Source of the DNA: a virus
Lineage: Duplodnaviria; Caudoviricetes
Virus record (IMG/VR): IMGVR_UViG_3300000439_000004
Location: 32,001-96,000 of that record
Reading direction: 5' to 3' (one strand)
DNA length: 64,000 nucleotides
The notes beneath the pieces were generated by a model. The model was not told where the DNA came from. It saw only the letters and a list, made by a program, of their open reading frames with translations, and searched no databases. Made by a program: the position numbers and the translations under genes. Positions 3,245-20,455 of this stretch are shown here, piece by piece; within the stretch, counting starts at the first letter, position 1; every line of letters begins with the position of its first letter.

Positions 3245-3257
3245 ATTAATTAATTTG

Positions 3258-3328
3258 TATTTCGTATCAGATTCGAACTGACAACTAATCTTTTAGAGAG
3301 ATGTATTTTACCGTTAAACTAACGAAAC
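3258..3328 (-). tRNA. Amber suppressor tRNA (anticodon CTA)
   Basis: GTTTCGT/ACGAAAT acceptor, D-loop GG, anticodon arm ATCT-CTCTAAA-AGAT, T-loop TTCGAAT. Confidence 0.75.
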
Positions 3329-3438
3329 AATTATATTACAAATATATGAAAACTTTTTCATATAACCAAATATTTTAAAACTGAACCTCGAACCTCGAAC
3401 TTTTATAGAAATGGGTATATTTATTATAAATACATATA

Positions 3439-7897: not shown

Positions 7898-8362
7898 TTA
7901 CAAACGAACTAAATGATTTGCAGCATAGGTCATAATTGCACCTAAGTGTTTATATCTGACTTTATAACCACAAGACTCAACCATACCAACCGCTTGTCTA
8001 AGTGTTGCATTAGATTTATATTTTGGATCTGGATTTAAGTCAATATCTATCCATTGTGGTTTTGGTAAACCATTATCTTTAAGATATTCAGCTAATTCAA
8101 TTGATTTCCAAACTTCAGTTAATAATCTTGTTGCAGTATTTCTCTCCATTGGAACTGTCTCACGACTACATAAAACATGGGCACCTTTACCCTTTGTATA
8201 TAATGCAATTACTACACCATATACTGTTTTTTTATTTCCATAACATTGTGAATCTGATCCGATTAAGATTTCTACATCTTCTCTGTTTGATAAGTAATCT
8301 TTTACATAATCAACTACATTTGGTATCGGAGTACCATAAAGTGTTCTAAATTTCCGTTCCAT
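7898..8362 (-). CDS. RNase H-like YkuK/DUF458 family protein
   Basis: IGSDSQ, EVWKSIELA, IDIDLN, AANHLVR motifs. Confidence 0.8.
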   Translation of the reverse strand: MERKFRTLYGTPIPNVVDYVKDYLSNREDVEILIGSDSQCYGNKKTVYGVVIALYTKGKGAHVLCSRETVPMERNTATRLLTEVWKSIELAEYLKDNGLPKPQWIDIDLNPDPKYKSNATLRQAVGMVESCGYKVRYKHLGAIMTYAANHLVRL

Positions 8363-8660: not shown

Positions 8661-8676
8661 ATATTTAAAAATTCTG

Positions 8677-8763
8677 CGGAGAGAGAGGGAGTCGAACCCT
8701 CGCACCGGTCTTACCCGATGTACAACTTAGCAGGTTGCTACATTACCACTCTGTCATCTCTCC
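8677..8763 (-). tRNA. trnS: tRNA-Ser(GCT)
   Basis: Cloverleaf, long variable arm, G73. Confidence 0.95.
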
Positions 8764-8774
8764 AATTTTTAGTG

Positions 8775-8845
8775 TTGTCCTGTAAAGATTCGAACTTTAA
8801 ATATAACATCCAAAATGTTATGTGTTACCATTACACTACAGAACA
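8775..8845 (-). tRNA. trnQ: tRNA-Gln(TTG)
   Basis: TAACA-TTTTGGA-TGTTA anticodon arm. Confidence 0.9.
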
Positions 8846-8987
8846 ATGAATAAACTAGCGGTCACATTCGTTACTAAGGACACTTACCCGATGCACCTGT
8901 AATGCATCAGACTAGTTAATTTGTGGGGGACTTTCACCCCTTGGACATGGTTTGTTTTCATTAAGTCACCATATCAACGGACCATTG

Positions 8988-9060
8988 ATCCAGAGACAAG
9001 CTTCGAACTTGCGACTTGAAATTTACAAAATTCCTACTCTACCAACTGAGTTACTCCGGA
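8988..9060 (-). tRNA. trnT: tRNA-Thr(TGT)
   Basis: GGAAT-TTTGTAA-ATTTC anticodon arm. Confidence 0.85.
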
Positions 9061-9171
9061 ATGGAGAGGGACACGTTATTTATCCGTTTTTGGGACTCCC
9101 TCAGACCCATATTTTAAAATTTTTATACTAAAAAATATAAAAACCGAGTTTTATAAATAATTCAATATTCT

Positions 9172-9855
9172 TTATTTCATCTTATTTCTTCCTTTATACC
9201 AACCTTGTGGTATTTCAGTTTCTTTCTTAATTTTCTTATTCTCAATACCATTTGTAATCCACATCGTTCCAAATTGTGAATTTAATGAACCTTTTTGATT
9301 AATTGAACTCTTTTCTCCAATTATCTTTTTTGTTTTATCATTATGTTTTTTTCCTTTAAAAGTTTTAGAACGATCAAAATTTGAATTTATTTGTCCATTT
9401 ATTATTTTTTTATTCCGTTCTTTTTTTTGGTCTTCAGTTAAATTATTATAATATTTTTTTACAATAATTGAACGAAAATCTTCACCATATTTTTCTCTTA
9501 AAATTAAATCACATTTTTTCCTACCTTTTTTTAATTGTTCTTTTGTTAAAAATCTATCACCTTGACCTCCAGTACCTCCTATTCCAAGATTCATACACAT
9601 TTTATCCTTCAATAATTCTTCATTAACTAATTCTCTTTCTTTTTTATATAATGATTCTCTATCTGAAAAATATTCAAGTATTTCACATTTAAAAATTTCT
9701 TTTCCATACTTGTTTATAGAATACCATAATCGTTTTCCAGAACCAATATAACCATCATTTAAATCATTTGTACTATGAATACCAATATAAAATTTTCCAT
9801 TAATAATATTAGTTGTTTTATAAATGTAATGATATTGTTTTTCTTTTCTTGACAT
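9172..9855 (-). CDS. GIY-YIG (Seg-like, NUMOD3) homing endonuclease
   Basis: YIYKTTNIINGKFYIGIH...YIGSG motif. Confidence 0.9.
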   Translation of the reverse strand: MSRKEKQYHYIYKTTNIINGKFYIGIHSTNDLNDGYIGSGKRLWYSINKYGKEIFKCEILEYFSDRESLYKKERELVNEELLKDKMCMNLGIGGTGGQGDRFLTKEQLKKGRKKCDLILREKYGEDFRSIIVKKYYNNLTEDQKKERNKKIINGQINSNFDRSKTFKGKKHNDKTKKIIGEKSSINQKGSLNSQFGTMWITNGIENKKIKKETEIPQGWYKGRNKMK

Positions 9856-9904
9856 AAATATAATTTATATATAAATATCAAAAAAAGGTACAAAAGTTCA
9901 AATG

Positions 9905-9980
9905 AGCATCGTGTCGGGCTCGAACCGACTAATTCCACCGACTTGGAAGGACGGGATGCAACCAGTTACACCTACGATGC
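9905..9980 (-). tRNA. trnG: tRNA-Gly(TCC)
   Basis: CTTCCAA loop, U73. Confidence 0.9.
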
Positions 9981-9982
9981 GT

Positions 9983-10624
9983 TTATTTTTTATATCTATA
10001 TTTTCTACCATGTCCTTTATTCAATGCACCATATGTTGGTGTTAATGAATGATGATTAGGACATAATAACATTAAATTTTCTAAAGTATTATTTTCTGAA
10101 TTACCATCAATATGTTCTAATTGAATAGGGACTTTTCCTGTAACTGGATTAATTTCGTTCCATCCACATTTCATACATTTATCCCCATATTTTTTTATTA
10201 AAAATTTTTTATATGATTTTTCAGAAAATGTTATATCACCGTTTTCAATTTTTTCAAAAATTGAATTTTGTTTATGTTCACCTTGACATTTATTAGAACA
10301 ATAATTTTTTTTTATTTTAATTTCTTTATTACAATTTAAACAATTATTTTTTTGATATTCATTTTTAAATCTAATTTTATTATTATATGTTGCCGAACAA
10401 CTATGATTACAAAAAAGTTTTTTATTACTAATTTCTTTATTACAATTTAAACAATGATTAATTTCAGTTTTTATAAAATCAGTACTTTTATATCCTAATC
10501 TATATAGTTTAGTTCTTATTGAAGATGATTCTCTTCCCAATTCAAAACTAATTTCTTTGTAAGATTTACCTTTTTTTATTAATTCAATTAAATTATCAAT
10601 TTCATTTTGTTTCCATATATTCAT
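9983..10624 (-). CDS. HNH homing endonuclease with zinc fingers
   Basis: LEHIDGNSENNTLENLMLLCPNHH motif. Confidence 0.9.
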   Translation of the reverse strand: MNIWKQNEIDNLIELIKKGKSYKEISFELGRESSSIRTKLYRLGYKSTDFIKTEINHCLNCNKEISNKKLFCNHSCSATYNNKIRFKNEYQKNNCLNCNKEIKIKKNYCSNKCQGEHKQNSIFEKIENGDITFSEKSYKKFLIKKYGDKCMKCGWNEINPVTGKVPIQLEHIDGNSENNTLENLMLLCPNHHSLTPTYGALNKGHGRKYRYKK

Positions 10625-10684
10625 ATATTATAAATATAATAAAATGAGCGATAAATGTAAATTGAAAAAAAAAATAATTTAAAG

Positions 10685-10756
10685 AGCGATAAAGAAGATT
10701 CGAACTTCCATATCCGAATTGGTAATCCGGAGTAATAACCATTATACTATTATCGC
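10685..10756 (-). tRNA. trnG: tRNA-Gly(ACC)
   Basis: CCGGA-TTACCAA-TTCGG arm, GCG start, U73. Confidence 0.85.
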
Positions 10757-10819
10757 ATAGGTACCATACTTACCATTGCAATGGTTGTTGAGGTAATGGT
10801 TACCTTTATCAACATTCTG

Positions 10820-10892
10820 TAGTTCCGACCAGAATCGAACTGGTGAGTTGACCTTGTAAGGGTCACATATTAAACCGCTATATGACGGAACT
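10820..10892 (-). tRNA. trnV: tRNA-Val(TAC)
   Basis: TGACC-CTTACAA-GGTCA arm. Confidence 0.9.
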
Positions 10893-10964
10893 AAAGAGGG
10901 TTCGCATTTTAAGAGTGCGATACCATCACCTTCTCTGAAGGTTATTCACTATACCTACAAACAG

Positions 10965-11035
10965 TGGATACAATGGGAGTCGAACCCACACACATCCGAA
11001 TTAGACCATTCTTGCTTCGCTCGGTACTTATACCC
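10965..11035 (-). ncRNA. Three-arm tRNA-like RNA with Ala identity (G3.U70, A73), resembling the tmRNA tRNA-like domain
   Basis: GGGTATA/TGTATCC acceptor, GTGGG-TTCGACT-CCCAT T arm, no D stem, single CCGAG/TTCGG arm. Confidence 0.6.
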
Positions 11036-11042
11036 AAATTTA

Positions 11043-11137
11043 GTTATATACCCCCTTGGACTTACCTGAACCAATTTGTCATTACCTCATGTATTGCTCG
11101 AGATGCACGAGTTAGATTCATTCAAGGGGTATATAAC
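11043..11137 (-). ncRNA. 95-nt hairpin ncRNA
   Basis: GTTATATACCCCTTG/CAAGGGGGTATATAAC closing stem between tRNAs. Confidence 0.55.
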
Positions 11138-11144
11138 GATGATG

Positions 11145-11218
11145 TTGATCCTACCGGTCTCGAACCGATCACCTAATGATTATGAGTCATTTGCTCTAAC
11201 CAACTGAGCTAAGGATCA
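11145..11218 (-). tRNA. tRNA-CAT (Ile2/lysidine or elongator Met)
   Basis: AATGA-CTCATAA-TCATT arm. Confidence 0.85.
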
Positions 11219-11294
11219 ATATAAAACAATTACCCACTCCTCACTACGGTCACCACTACAAGTCATGCTCAGGTTGTACCAGTAGGTAATTCTT

Positions 11295-11828
11295 TTATCT
11301 TTTTAATGTGATTGTTGTGAATAAATAATCATCATTAGTTTCAATCAAAATATCTTCTTCTTTCAAACTATAAGAACAACAATCAGAACTCCATAAACAG
11401 TCAATTAAACCTCGTTTAAATTCATTCATATCTTTTACATTTAAAGGTGACAGATGTGATTGAATTGTTGGGGGATAATATTTATCATCCAACATTTTTT
11501 GATATGTTCTAAGATTATTCCATTCTTCTTTTGTTGCTTCCTTTTTTTCTTCTTCTGTTCCTCTAAAGTTCCAAACTTTATTAAACCATATATCATTTAA
11601 TCTTTTAAGTTCGTTTGTTTCTTCTTCTGAAACTTGAATAGTGTTTCTGGTTGTAATATCATCACAACTTAATGTTGGTAATGTTCTGTAAACTATATAT
11701 TCACCAACATATTGACCAAGTTGATATTCCAAAGAAAGTTCTTCAATTTGTTTTTTTCTTCTTTGTCTACCAATTTCAATTTCTTCCGGCGAACGTTTCA
11801 TAATACGTTCTAAAACACTTGATTTCAT
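11295..11828 (-). CDS. Hypothetical protein inside tRNA operon
   Basis: 177 aa ORF. Confidence 0.75.
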   Translation of the reverse strand: MKSSVLERIMKRSPEEIEIGRQRRKKQIEELSLEYQLGQYVGEYIVYRTLPTLSCDDITTRNTIQVSEEETNELKRLNDIWFNKVWNFRGTEEEKKEATKEEWNNLRTYQKMLDDKYYPPTIQSHLSPLNVKDMNEFKRGLIDCLWSSDCCSYSLKEEDILIETNDDYLFTTITLKR

Positions 11829-11857
11829 AAATAAAAAATTTAATTTTTAAAAAATTG

Positions 11858-11942
11858 TGGGACGTGATGGGGTCGAACCATCCGAGTCATTAAGACAAAC
11901 GATTTACAGTCGTTTCTGCTACCACTTACAGGATAACGTCCC
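11858..11942 (-). tRNA. trnY: tRNA-Tyr(GTA)
   Basis: AACGA-CTGTAAA-TCGTT arm, long variable arm. Confidence 0.9.
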
Positions 11943-12046
11943 GAATTTAGGAAAACAGAAGATGGGCGAGTGGACATCTGTTTTTATAATTGGCATTACT
12001 TATTTCACCTCCGATAGTGATACTACCTTTCCCCAATTAACCTTTG

Positions 12047-12121
12047 TACTTATAGTCGGATTCGAACCGACACTACTATGTTCCTAAGACATATGACTCC
12101 TTCCAATTGGTCTATACAAGT
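12047..12121 (-). tRNA. trnL: tRNA-Leu(TAG) with a short variable loop
   Basis: TATGT-CTTAGGA-ACATA arm, A73, 5-nt variable loop. Confidence 0.8.
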
Positions 12122-12131
12122 GTATTTATTG

Positions 12132-12215
12132 TGATCAAAGAAAGACTCGAACTTTCACGTCTTTACGGACACCGGGTTTTGAATCCAGCGCGTCTACCAA
12201 TTACGCCATTTGACC
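12132..12215 (-). tRNA. trnL: tRNA-Leu(CAA)
   Basis: TTCAAAA loop, long variable arm. Confidence 0.9.
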
Positions 12216-12222
12216 ATAAATG

Positions 12223-12295
12223 CTCCCACAGAGGGTCACGATCCCCCGACCTCAATCTTAACAGGATTTTGCTCTACCAACTGAGCTATGTGGGA
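12223..12295 (-). tRNA. trnN: tRNA-Asn(GTT)
   Basis: CTGTTAA loop, TCC start, G73. Confidence 0.9.
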
Positions 12296-12323
12296 ATTTT
12301 AAAAAGGTACAAAAGTTCAAATG

Positions 12324-12414
12324 TTGGGGTGACGAGACTCGAACTCGCATTTTCGGATATTAACCTACTTTCTAGTTCCCAAAACTAGTCGTCTTCCATT
12401 GACTTCACACCCCA
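12324..12414 (-). tRNA. trnP: tRNA-Pro(TGG) with enlarged variable region
   Basis: CTAGT-TTTGGGA-ACTAG arm; about 23-nt variable region. Confidence 0.8.
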
Positions 12415-12425
12415 ATATAAAAATG

Positions 12426-12497
12426 TAGTCCTGAGTGGGATCGAACCACTATGTATTGTTTAGAAAACAATTATTCTATCCATTGAATTACAAGACC
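12426..12497 (-). tRNA. trnR: tRNA-Arg(TCT)
   Basis: ATTGT-TTTCTAA-ACAAT arm. Confidence 0.9.
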
Positions 12498-12614
12498 ATT
12501 TAACATACATCAATATAATCAGGAATTGTATCCATAACAATTATAAATCATGTATGTTTTTTGTGCCCTAGGCGGGGGTCGAACCCGCACCCCCATTGCT
12601 GGGGACGGGATTTT

Positions 12615-13559
12615 CTTACCACTATAATTTTCATTACCATTTTATAATGTTTGTGGTCTGGACTTTCTCTTTACCATGTCAGTTATTCCATATAATTCAC
12701 ACCATTTATGTACAGCTTTATCTGAAACATTATAATGTTTACCAACTTGAACAAATGATCCATATATTTCAAATGATTTTAATAAATCAGGAACTTTAGG
12801 TATATTTGTTCTTGAGTGTTCTCTATAACACTCAGTTGAACAATATTTACTTTCATTCCGACTAAAAATAAAATCATTATTACAATGTAAACATTTTTTT
12901 GTTTTAACTGATTTAGGTATATCGTGTAAAGTCTCTGCACCTTCTCTATTTTTAATAGAGCTTGGCTCAGGATTAACAGTTAAGTCTTCCCTGAATTTAC
13001 GATATTCTACATCTCTCTTTTCAGAAAGTGCACTCAATTTATTTTTACTACGAAAATTTGATGTCATTGAATGACAGTTAGGGCAAAGTATTTCTAAGTT
13101 TTCAATACGATTATCCATATTATTACCATTTATATGATTAAGTTCTAATTTAATAGGTTGATTTAACCAAATTGTATTTTCACATCTTTCACATTTATAT
13201 TCTTTAATATTTTCTTTAATTAATCGTTTTCTTAATGAATTAGTATTTGAATATGTAGAATTTTCTACTAAAATTTCAGATAAAGATTGTTTTTTAGAAA
13301 ATGTCTTATATCTTGTACCAGTATTCCATCCTTTTCCTGTAAAATGATTAATATTAATATTATTTTTTTTTAACATAATATTAATAGTTTTATAATTACC
13401 ACCAACAGGTCTAATACTTAATTCTCTGCAAACTTGTGCAATACTTAATGATTTACTAACTGCAATTTCTAATTCTTCTTTTGTGTATTTATGTTTCATA
13501 TATAATAAATATATCGAACTAACACAAAAGTTAATTAAATTAATCGTGTATCACTTTTT
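12615..13559 (-). mobile_element. Group I intron (trnL-UAA type), 945 nt, encoding an HNH endonuclease
   Basis: 5' splice after U, terminal G; P AAATTCAGGGAA (12987-12998), Q AATCCTGAGC (12965-12974), R GTGCAGAGACT (12930-12940), S AAGAGAAAGTCC (12660-12671). Confidence 0.92.
12642..13499 (-). CDS. Intron-encoded HNH endonuclease reading through the ribozyme core
   Basis: LELNHINGNNMDNRIENLEILCPNCH, second zinc finger and HTH. Confidence 0.9.
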   Translation of the reverse strand: MKHKYTKEELEIAVSKSLSIAQVCRELSIRPVGGNYKTINIMLKKNNININHFTGKGWNTGTRYKTFSKKQSLSEILVENSTYSNTNSLRKRLIKENIKEYKCERCENTIWLNQPIKLELNHINGNNMDNRIENLEILCPNCHSMTSNFRSKNKLSALSEKRDVEYRKFREDLTVNPEPSSIKNREGAETLHDIPKSVKTKKCLHCNNDFIFSRNESKYCSTECYREHSRTNIPKVPDLLKSFEIYGSFVQVGKHYNVSDKAVHKWCELYGITDMVKRKSRPQTL

Positions 13560-13657
13560 AAGTCCCGCGTGTCTACCTAGTTTCACCACCAGGGCAACTT
13601 ATTCCACAATGTCAAAGAAATTTAATTTTTATTTTTTCTTATGATATTTATATACAT

Positions 13658-14347
13658 ATGAAACATACATATACACCAGAAGAATATAATAACTCAACAC
13701 CAGAAACCGACATTCCACTTATTTGTGTTGGTTGTGATCATATATTCTATGTAAAAAAGAAAACCATAGAAAATAATAAATGGGGTCATAGAACATTTGA
13801 TTTTTGTAATTCCGAATGTCGCAGAGAACATAGAAAAAAAAATATTATGATAACCACCAATTGTACTAATTGTAATACTGTTATAACAAAACTATATTCA
13901 GCAAGTAAACGACATAAAAATACATTTTGTAGTCATTCATGTTCTACGATATATTTAAATTCACATAAAACATTTGGTTATAAACGTTCTAAATTGGAAA
14001 TTTGGATAGAAGAACAATTAACACAAATTTATCCAGAACTGTTAATTAACTATAATAAAAAAGATATTATTAATTCAGAATTAGATATTTATATACCATC
14101 TCTTTCACTAGCATTTGAATTAAACGGTATCTTTCATTATGAACCTGTTTTTAGTAATGAAAGATTAATATCAACACAAATTAACGATTCTTTAAAATTT
14201 AAAAAATGTATTGAAAATAACATATCATTATGTGTTATTGATACATCACAACAAAAATATGTTAAACCATCCACAAGTCAAAAATATTTAGATATTATAA
14301 CTAAAATAATTAATGAAAATTTAATATTAAAAAACAATATTAACTAA
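13658..14347 (+). CDS. Zinc-finger plus PD-(D/E)XK (Vsr/DUF559-like) endonuclease
   Basis: ELDIYIPSLSLAFELNGIFHY motif and Cys clusters. Confidence 0.8.
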   Translation: MKHTYTPEEYNNSTPETDIPLICVGCDHIFYVKKKTIENNKWGHRTFDFCNSECRREHRKKNIMITTNCTNCNTVITKLYSASKRHKNTFCSHSCSTIYLNSHKTFGYKRSKLEIWIEEQLTQIYPELLINYNKKDIINSELDIYIPSLSLAFELNGIFHYEPVFSNERLISTQINDSLKFKKCIENNISLCVIDTSQQKYVKPSTSQKYLDIITKIINENLILKNNIN

Positions 14348-14371
14348 TTATACAACAATGTAAAAGAACTA

Positions 14372-14415
14372 AAACAAAAAACCCGAACTTATTTTTTTAT
14401 TAGTAAGTTCGGGTT
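14372..14415 (-). terminator. Attenuator terminator of tRNA operon 1
   Basis: AACCCGAACTTA/TAAGTTCGGGTT 12-bp stem followed by TTTTGTTTT. Confidence 0.85.
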
Positions 14416-14439
14416 ATATTTTTTAGAAATTAATCTATT

Positions 14440-14541
14440 TTATATTTTATATTCCGAACATACTATACTTTGCACATTTCCTCTATTGCCGTTATATAAC
14501 GGGTTAGGGTTAAGTGTTAGTATGTTCGTCAATAATTTCAT
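14440..14541 (-). CDS. Leader peptide 1 (33 aa, MKLLTNILTLNPNPLYNGNRGNVQSIVCSEYKI)
   Basis: Lies between promoter TATATTTG (14560-14567) and terminator; contains antiterminator TAGTATGTTCGG and protector CGAACATACTA. Confidence 0.8.
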   Translation of the reverse strand: MKLLTNILTLNPNPLYNGNRGNVQSIVCSEYKI

Positions 14542-14696
14542 CTTACTAATAATTATATGCAAATATACGAAAAGTTTTTCAAACTACAAAATATTTTTAT
14601 TTTTTTTTTATTATACTTTGTTTTCGTACTTTGATGAGGCAAATATAAGTGAAATATTTGGAATAATAAAATGTTTTTTAAAATATTTATTTATAA

Positions 14697-14831
14697 ATGA
14701 AAATAATCAGAAAGATATTATGTTTTGTAGGTTTTCATCGTTATATTGATTGTGATGAATGTGATCTAAAAAACAAAGTATCAATTATGGTTAAATGTGA
14801 GATTTGTGGGAAAATTAGTGGTAATGGTTAA
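14697..14831 (+). CDS. Small Cys/His zinc-ribbon protein (44 aa)
   Basis: MKIIRKILCFVGFHRY...CDEC...CEICGK after a TATTTAT motif; below ORF-track cutoff. Confidence 0.55.
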   Translation: MKIIRKILCFVGFHRYIDCDECDLKNKVSIMVKCEICGKISGNG

Positions 14832-20370: not shown

Positions 20371-20455
20371 ATTTTTATCCATATTTCAAAGAACATATAT
20401 CGTTTCCGATTGTTCAGCAAAGATAATAATATTTTTGATTCTACCAAATTTATTT

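Follow-up and report, generated by a model that had tools for sequence, protein, structure and literature searches.

What controls the tRNA genes that a phage carries, and to what does the phage respond when it expresses them? The reason why phages carry tRNAs is debated, with a match to codon usage, host tRNA decay and escape from anticodon nucleases as the competing explanations, and to our knowledge the regulation of these genes by the phage itself is essentially undescribed. The question is raised here by a 64,000-nucleotide stretch of viral DNA (the window), which comprises bases 32001-96000 of the 162-kb IMG/VR record IMGVR_UViG_3300000439_000004 (G+C content 27.6%, CheckV completeness 52%) and contains all tRNA genes of that record. 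On its minus strand a promoter, a short open reading frame (ORF) and an intrinsic terminator precede an array of 14 tRNA genes with endonuclease ORFs interspersed (8676-13595). We conclude that this cassette is very probably a leader-peptide (ribosome-mediated) transcription attenuator by which the phage would regulate its own tRNA genes. The phage is a giant phage, and the promoter type and the boxA-like element described below assign it and its uncultured giant relatives to Bacteroidota hosts.

An initial annotation, made from the sequence alone, had proposed that the cassette is an attenuator sensing tRNA depletion. On re-reading, the positions it gave for promoter, ORF and terminator were exact, as were its helix pairings, and its interpretation is now supported by codon co-variation among related cassettes, by the frame specificity of the codon match and by an antiterminator fitted to its own terminator. 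Every sequence-level feature of a leader-peptide attenuator is present in the window element. The annotation knew of no such control for phage tRNA arrays, and a search of 8.4 million papers and preprints likewise found no published description of leader-peptide control of tRNA genes.

Leader codons and downstream tRNAs

The leader ORF (14440-14541, minus strand) starts with an ATG at 14541 and ends with a TAA at 14442-14440, giving 33 codons plus the stop. According to the initial annotation, all 25 codons from 3 to 27 belong to families served by the downstream tRNAs. This holds when codons are counted by family box, with the CAT tRNA assumed to be read as Ile2. These boxes account for 52% of the codons in the long ORFs of the phage, and given that background a run of 25 family-matched codons has P = 3.8e-7. 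Among 518 small ORFs in six frames of the whole genome, a single one, the leader, has a family-matched run of at least 20 codons. The claim does not hold under strict wobble rules, which reduce the match to 24 of the 33 codons with no run longer than 9. The length of the run rests on the generous family-box reading, and the decisive evidence is comparative.

Relatives were sought among viral contigs with a pattern for the two helix arms of the leader. The only match was L014, a contig of 5986 nt in which promoter, leader and terminator are 93.6% identical to those of the window. Its leader differs by a synonymous GGC to GGT change and by the substitutions K32E and I33V. The terminator of L014 lies about 35 nt ahead of an intron-free tRNA-Leu(TAA) with no gene between them, followed by an array of 12 tRNAs in the same order as in the window. 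A pattern for the back-translated peptide likewise gave only L014 among viral contigs, and a metagenome search with the peptide and helix patterns returned only a twin of L014 and the chance matches L015, L016 and L018. Homologues of the upstream 195-aa protein (L003-L013) were not syntenic and had no leaders. LR756500 (H6) was rejected as a relative, as it resembles the window in its promoter only and has neither leader nor array downstream. The window and L014 form a mosaic, with identity ranging from 79% to 99% block by block.

The cassette also recurs in related huge phages. We screened the tRNA regions of five huge-phage records sharing a neighbouring protein for terminators at most 200 nt upstream of a tRNA and found ten further cassettes ahead of arrays. 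These have a TAnnTTTG promoter, an ORF starting with ATG-AAA and a terminator 17-30 nt past the stop codon, followed by tRNAs; across all cassettes the gap between stop and terminator is 17-34 nt. The leader peptides resemble a list of the tRNAs behind them. A leader with QQQQQ precedes three tRNA-Gln genes (L026), and in L019 the leader THTQPQPQQHPQ precedes Pro, Pro, His, Gln, Gln and Gln, TYYKKYYYKHY precedes Tyr, Lys and Lys, and a leader rich in D, E, V, L, A and W precedes Asp, Glu, Glu, Val, Leu, Ala, Leu, Leu and Trp. The leader SKHSKSFKSFWSH of L024 is followed by Lys, Lys, Phe, Ser and Trp and then by more Ser, Phe, His, Trp and Lys genes, and a leader rich in A, G, Y, P, M and D by Pro, Asp, Asp, Tyr, Ala, Ala, Gly, Gly, Tyr, Met and Met (L022). 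The leader of L031 is homologous to that of the window (shared NP..NG.N.NVQS..V.CSE) and is re-spelled for its own array.

A second set was collected without regard to codons by scanning IMG/VR for the conserved box found after the terminator, with a T-run ahead of it. Forty loci were found, 28 of them with a tRNA array 7-104 nt after the box, and a terminator and a small ORF are present at 27 of these 28. One further arrangement was seen in L025 (1812-1904; G003), where a cassette without a promoter of its own lies inside an array, 22 nt past two tRNA-Met genes; it follows that sub-arrays on read-through transcripts can also be gated by a cassette.

Comparing leader codons with downstream anticodons in related phages, the check suggested in the initial annotation, gave a strongly positive permutation result in both of these separately collected sets. 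In the structure-selected set (n = 11) the summed match of leaders to their own arrays is 5.82 versus 2.78 +/- 0.46 (z = 6.6; 0 of 100,000 permutations), and every distinct anticodon has a cognate leader codon in 9 of the 11 pairs. The box-selected set (n = 13, non-redundant) gives z = 5.3, again with 0 of 100,000 permutations, and an anticodon coverage of 0.94 for the own array versus 0.68 for the others. With both sets combined (n = 24 non-redundant pairs) z is about 10, no permutation out of 100,000 does as well, and the fraction of distinct anticodons with a leader codon is 0.96 for the own array versus 0.64 for other arrays. The match is also concentrated early in the leader, amounting to 70% of codons before the antiterminator segment (segment 2, see below) and 41% after it.

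The signal depends on the reading frame. Codons match in 52% of cases in the ORF frame, whereas the two shifted frames reach 25% and 24%, and 22 of the 24 leaders score highest in frame 0. This frame-specific match indicates that the triplets are read as codons. It also bears on a different possibility, namely that the leader RNA binds tRNAs directly and independently of the ribosome, in the manner of a T-box, so that the matched triplets would be specifier sequences. T-box riboswitches likewise sense the state of tRNA and switch between terminator and antiterminator. However, their direct binding of uncharged tRNA needs no ribosome and relies on a specifier loop and the T-box sequence, whereas the codon signal of the phage leaders is lost when the frame is shifted. 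The triplets share their frame with the conserved ATG-AAA start and with a stop 17-34 nt before the terminator, and ten to thirty different specifiers in a row would be without precedent. At gathering score the window contains no match to the T-box family of Rfam (RF00230), and within 12400-14700 there was none even at E values up to 1; no other Rfam leader matched. We therefore attach almost no probability to a T-box-like leader.

Terminator and alternative helices

If the leader is translated, does the RNA offer the ribosome a choice of structures? The intrinsic terminator (segments 3 and 4; 14380-14415, minus strand) has a stem that is perfect over 12 bp (14415-14404 with 14391-14380), a 12-nt loop and a stability of -15.3 kcal/mol, and runs directly into the T-tract TTTTTTGTTTT (14371-14381). 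No other strong terminator is present on the minus strand between 2900 and 21000. Two segments lie upstream within the leader ORF on the same strand. Segment 1, the candidate protector or anti-antiterminator CGAACATACTA (14519-14529, within codons 5-8), pairs at 11 of 11 positions with 14466-14456. Segment 2, the candidate 5' strand of the antiterminator TAGTATGTTCGG (14455-14466, codons 26-29), ends 12 nt (14454-14443) before the stop codon and pairs at 11 of 12 positions with the terminator 5' arm CCGAACTTACTA (14412-14401). The domain of helix 1:2 has a predicted energy of -22.6 kcal/mol, and the duplex of segment 2 with the terminator arm -14.5 kcal/mol (z = -4.8 versus shuffles). In the minimum free energy structure of the 184-nt RNA (-41.9 kcal/mol, z = -5.45), helix 1:2 is combined with helix 3:4, and 200 shuffles yielded no fold as good.

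The same pairing is maintained throughout the family. Antiterminator segments pair with their own terminator 5' arm at a mean of -15.2 kcal/mol versus -8.7 kcal/mol with other terminators (z = -11.5). Folding the alternatives also bore out the three-helix switch of the initial annotation. For these folds, 30 nt were masked to represent the ribosome and the RNA was cut off at segment 3. An A site placed at any of codons 5-14 shifts the predicted fold from helix 1:2 to helix 2:3, which forms with 10 pairs. When the stall is at codon 24 or later, segment 2 is covered, and a ribosome on the stop codon hides its 3' half.

The terminator hairpin is symmetrical and has a T-run on the plus strand as well, so that it is predicted to work in both directions. 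A plus-strand endonuclease gene (13658-14347) converges on the leader, and the hairpin thus serves as its terminator too. The locus could then be read in a simpler way, with the leader as an independent small-protein gene, the bidirectional terminator merely separating convergent genes, the array transcribed from elsewhere and the codon likeness a matter of composition. The position of the symmetrical hairpin, with its T-runs on both strands, between the endonuclease gene and the upstream minus-strand genes fits such an arrangement. However, L014 and 37 other loci have the cassette without a convergent gene, and the composition of the leaders tracks the array behind them, so that the permutation tests already disfavor this explanation. 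Neither a protector that pairs at 11 of 11 positions nor an antiterminator suited to its own terminator would have a role in a plain gene. An unrelated small-protein gene is for these reasons very improbable.

Promoter and boxA-like element

The remaining parts of the cassette point to the host. The promoter (14560-14590, minus strand) is of the Bacteroidota type, with a -33 TTTG at 14590-14587, a 19-nt spacer and a -7 box, TATATTTG, at 14567-14560. The latter is the element that the initial annotation had identified as the promoter, to which the -33 motif is now added. The pattern TTTG-N18-20-TAnnTTTG, which we take to be the sigma-A consensus of Bacteroides and other Bacteroidota, has 13 matches in the window, 12 of them on the minus strand, versus 3.4 expected; no shuffle attains 13. 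The leader promoter shares its extended consensus with the promoters adjoining tRNA-Sup(CTA) (3339-3370) and tRNA-Phe (20418-20448), and it is conserved in L014. The leader ATG lies 18 nt downstream of the -7 box, an arrangement repeated in L014 and in the other cassettes.

A conserved 16-nt box, TTCTTTGACATnnTGG, is located between the terminator and the first tRNA, and in 26 of the 28 box-found arrays it is 7-18 nt ahead of that tRNA. The window has two minus-strand copies. The intact one is TTTCTTTGACATTGTGG (13604-13620), and 8 nt separate its end from the first tRNA base at 13595. A degenerate one, GTTCTTTTACATTGTTG (14353-14369), is by alignment the last stretch collinear with L014 before an insertion, and the endonuclease gene sits between the two copies. 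To place this box, prokaryotic genomes, one per species, were scanned for GTTCTTTGACATNNTGGNAA, and the figures given here hold among the matches listed. Nearly all of these records are Bacteroidota (Chitinophagaceae, Bacteroidales, Saprospiraceae, Cytophagales, Sphingobacteriales). Of 81 sites, 46 lie 288-880 nt past the 16S 3' end, which is the 16S-23S spacer, and many of the others come from short contigs. The phage box is letter-for-letter identical to this conserved Bacteroidota spacer element. The boxA of the E. coli rrn operons is UGCUCUUUA with the spacer ACAAUUUA (PMC2724277), and in a base-by-base alignment with that reference the phage and Bacteroidota box, UGUUCUUUGACAUAUUGG, is identical at 12 of 17 positions.

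From this identity and its position just past a conditional terminator, the box would be a boxA of the host rRNA-operon type, and it may bind Nus factors, so that the decision at the terminator would be followed by processive transcription of a long array that is not translated. Antitermination by boxA and Nus factors in rRNA operons (rrnTAC) offers the obvious parallel, since the box has the sequence of the Bacteroidota spacer element and resembles E. coli rrn boxA; the phage copy differs in standing ahead of a tRNA array, directly past what appears to be a conditional terminator. A second promoter was considered for this box and ruled out, as its -10 element would fall inside the tRNA in both the window and L014 and the box equals the host rRNA spacer element.

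In several loci (L022, L033/L045/L047, the second box of L053, L025 and L031) the sequence directly following the boxA core is complementary to one located at the last tRNA or shortly past it, and both sides vary in step between loci, like the leader-trailer helix of rRNA operons. Around the window array no such helix was found, the best partner (about 8252-8232) lying inside the ORF 7898-8362 and not being significant as the best of 594 windows.

The tRNA array and its insertions

The array begins with a split Leu(TAA), followed by Arg(TCT), Pro(TGG), Asn(GTT), Leu(CAA), Leu(TAG), Tyr(GTA) and CAT, and after these by a tRNA-like gene whose anticodon loop is enlarged, Val(TAC), Gly(ACC), Thr(TGT), Gln(TTG) and Ser(GCT). 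Anticodons were verified for 13 of the 14 genes. The array start at 13595, as initially annotated, is correct, the first gene being the split tRNA-Leu(TAA) (12564-13595, minus strand). An insert of about 945 nt, which carries an HNH endonuclease ORF (12642-13499; PHROG E = 1.3e-52), interrupts the anticodon loop of this gene. The joined halves of the gene make an 88-nt tRNA-Leu, and the L014 copy is uninterrupted. No Rfam intron family matched the insert in a search of 12400-14700. The tRNA for Gly with anticodon TCC listed in the initial annotation is not supported, because the gene in question (10965-11053, minus strand; 35.9 bits in Rfam) has about 12 extra anticodon-loop bases and no readable TCC. 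It is 90% conserved in L014, and ARAGORN calls no tRNA there in either sequence.

Between the tRNAs there are minus-strand ORFs at 9172-9855, 9983-10624 and 11295-11828, which comprise GIY-YIG and HNH endonuclease-like genes and a 177-aa ORF without assignment. The tRNA-Gly(ACC) (10684-10756, minus strand) has an unusual A34, and the homologous stretch of L014 seems to have been lost along with the adjacent HNH gene. Elsewhere in the window, a tRNA with the suppressor-type anticodon CTA (3257-3328, minus strand), which ARAGORN names 'Pyl', has its consensus promoter (3339-3370) 10 nt upstream. TAG may be a sense codon in part of this phage. G002 also has a tRNA with a CTA anticodon, and its L021 leader terminates in TAG.

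The free-standing homing endonuclease gene at 13658-14347 (plus strand, 229 aa; PHROG HNH/homing endonuclease families, best E = 1.2e-13) was missing from the initial annotation. It separates the terminator from the array, is antisense to the array and is absent from L014. Because the cassette of L014 adjoins its array directly, the gene is an insertion into an ancestral layout of promoter, leader, terminator, box and tRNA array.

Points against an attenuator

Several observations weigh against the attenuator reading and concern the codons, the folding and the surroundings of the array. Among synonymous codons (Leu, Ser, Arg), 30 of 44 agree with the array versus 26.4 expected (z = 1.3, not significant). 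L014 seems to lack tRNA-Gly(ACC), yet its leader retains both Gly codons. Codons 23-27 of the window leader (Val, Gln, Ser, Ile, Val) include the Val, Gln and Ser(GCT) codons and are located where a stalled ribosome should mask segment 2 and with it the antiterminator. Stalls at codons 17-20 still permit helix 1:2 in the folds, though this helix would need to close around or across the ribosome. At equilibrium in the full transcript, helix 3:4 always beats helix 2:3. A second array (20370-17964, minus strand; Phe to Thr, with three CAT tRNAs) is immediately preceded by a consensus promoter (20418-20448), and inspection revealed no leader, terminator or box. In the window, moreover, a 690-nt antisense gene stands between the terminator and the array, and a full promoter match inside that gene offers a possible bypass of the attenuator.

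Some of these points refine the proposal. Since helix 3:4 beats 2:3 at equilibrium, the switch must be kinetic, as is the choice of helices in trp operon attenuation. With a promoter but no leader ahead of the second array, the two arrays of one phage are controlled differently. The initial annotation had suggested an OR gate in which stalling at any depleted tRNA opens the array. Stalls at early codons do free segment 2 in the masked folds, and this part of the suggestion stands; stalls at codons 23-27 would mask the antiterminator, and the word 'any' goes further than the evidence. With Val, Gln and Ser(GCT) codons so badly placed, the gate probably does not weigh all its inputs equally.

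The synonymous-codon result raises another explanation. Specificity has been obtained for amino acids and codon families, not for isoacceptors. The leader might be a general gauge of translation capacity or infection timing, opened by any slow-down of the ribosome such as host shut-off or ribosome shortage, with the codons only tuning its sensitivity. The common MK(N) start and general layout of the leaders would suit such a gauge. Arrays of a single family, however, have leaders dominated by the same amino acids, such as QQQQQ ahead of three tRNA-Gln genes or Y and K ahead of Tyr-Lys-Lys, and these are hard to explain without specific sensing. A general gauge is accordingly improbable in our judgment.

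The insertion of the endonuclease gene carries more weight. The attenuator family may be real and the window copy nevertheless uncoupled, the array being driven mainly from a promoter in the insert or by other read-through and the cassette remaining as a recent relic or a source of a small terminated transcript. The 690-nt antisense gene between terminator and boxA speaks for this, as do the decay of the box copy beside the terminator while the copy beside the tRNA stays intact, and the match to TTTG-N19-TAnnTTTG at 14282-14252 on the array (minus) strand. This match, which could drive the array without the attenuator, compares with about 0.02 expected per 700 nt, as derived from 3.4 per window. 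On the other side, the leader, the promoter and all four helix segments match those of the uninterrupted L014 exactly or almost exactly, the leader has suffered no stop or frame damage, and a read-through of 760 nt antisense to the endonuclease gene is mechanically possible. Uncoupling of the window copy is thus unlikely, though clearly less so than the other alternatives, and there is a similarly modest chance that the array of this genome is now driven at least partly past the attenuator.

Proposed mechanism and relation to known systems

For the leader-peptide attenuator we infer the following course of events. Host sigma-A RNA polymerase would initiate at the TTTG/TAnnTTTG promoter, and a ribosome would load on the ATG-AAA leader ORF. 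If the leader is read quickly, the ribosome would reach the region of segment 2 and the stop codon, helix 3:4 would form and transcription would terminate at 14381-14371. Without translation, helix 1:2 would form and helix 3:4 would again terminate. If a cognate charged tRNA is scarce, the ribosome would stall in the first 14 or so codons, perhaps up to codon 22, covering segment 1 and leaving segment 2 free to capture the terminator 5' arm as it emerges, and the polymerase would read through. It would then cross the rRNA-operon-type boxA, probably loading host Nus antitermination factors, and transcribe the array. A shortage of any one of several tRNAs would in this way switch on the gate. 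As the leader is made up of the codons that its own array serves, decoding capacity would be under negative feedback. Possible sources of the shortfall are anticodon-nuclease cleavage of host tRNA, host shut-off and the codon demand of the phage itself. Feedback on total decoding capacity explains the data as well as the cleaved host tRNAs proposed as the trigger in the initial annotation.

In our best reading, this is leader-peptide attenuation of the trp/his/ilv type acting on tRNA genes and forming a demand-driven supply loop. Its nearest known counterparts are the multivalent ilv and thr leaders and the pheST leader. The leaders of ilvGMEDA and thr, and also those of trp, his, pheA and leu, are similarly short, translated and rich in regulatory codons. 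These enterobacterial leaders have protector, antiterminator and terminator helices and a stop codon just before the terminator, and stalling favors read-through. Sensing of several amino acids in a single leader is known from ilv and thr. In contrast to these leaders, which regulate biosynthetic enzymes, the phage cassette would regulate tRNA genes, so that the product would feed back on decoding, the very step being sensed. It also differs from amino-acid operon leaders in sampling up to 13 or more codon families, in being phage-borne and in being followed by a boxA. In the pheST leader of E. coli, Phe codons control phenylalanyl-tRNA synthetase, so that leader-peptide attenuation acts there on a component of translation and charged tRNA is sensed through ribosome speed, as we propose here. 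The output of pheST is a synthetase protein for one amino acid, whereas that of the phage cassette would be tRNAs, with many sensed together. The tRNA clusters of T4, T5 and other large phages resemble the window array in having homing endonuclease genes interspersed among the tRNA genes, and we know of no leader-peptide attenuator described for them. New here are tRNA genes as the regulated genes of a leader-peptide attenuator, a leader that samples the whole anticodon set and the boxA that follows.

A leader written in the codons of its own array reveals what the phage measures, namely the decoding speed at those codons. Textbook leader-peptide attenuation would thereby extend to regulated genes whose product closes the loop on the sensor, and it would be combined here with rRNA-style antitermination. 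We consider it fairly probable that this modular cassette of host-type promoter, codon-matched attenuator and rRNA-type boxA makes phage tRNA arrays demand-driven, with any decoding shortfall opening the gate to processive transcription, and that the sensor could also counter tRNA-targeting defence. Such short cassettes, naturally re-coded for each tRNA set, are attractive as sensors of tRNA availability. If this is true, a sensor of the tRNA pool with several inputs is built into the phage and could act as an automatic counter-measure to defences directed at tRNAs.

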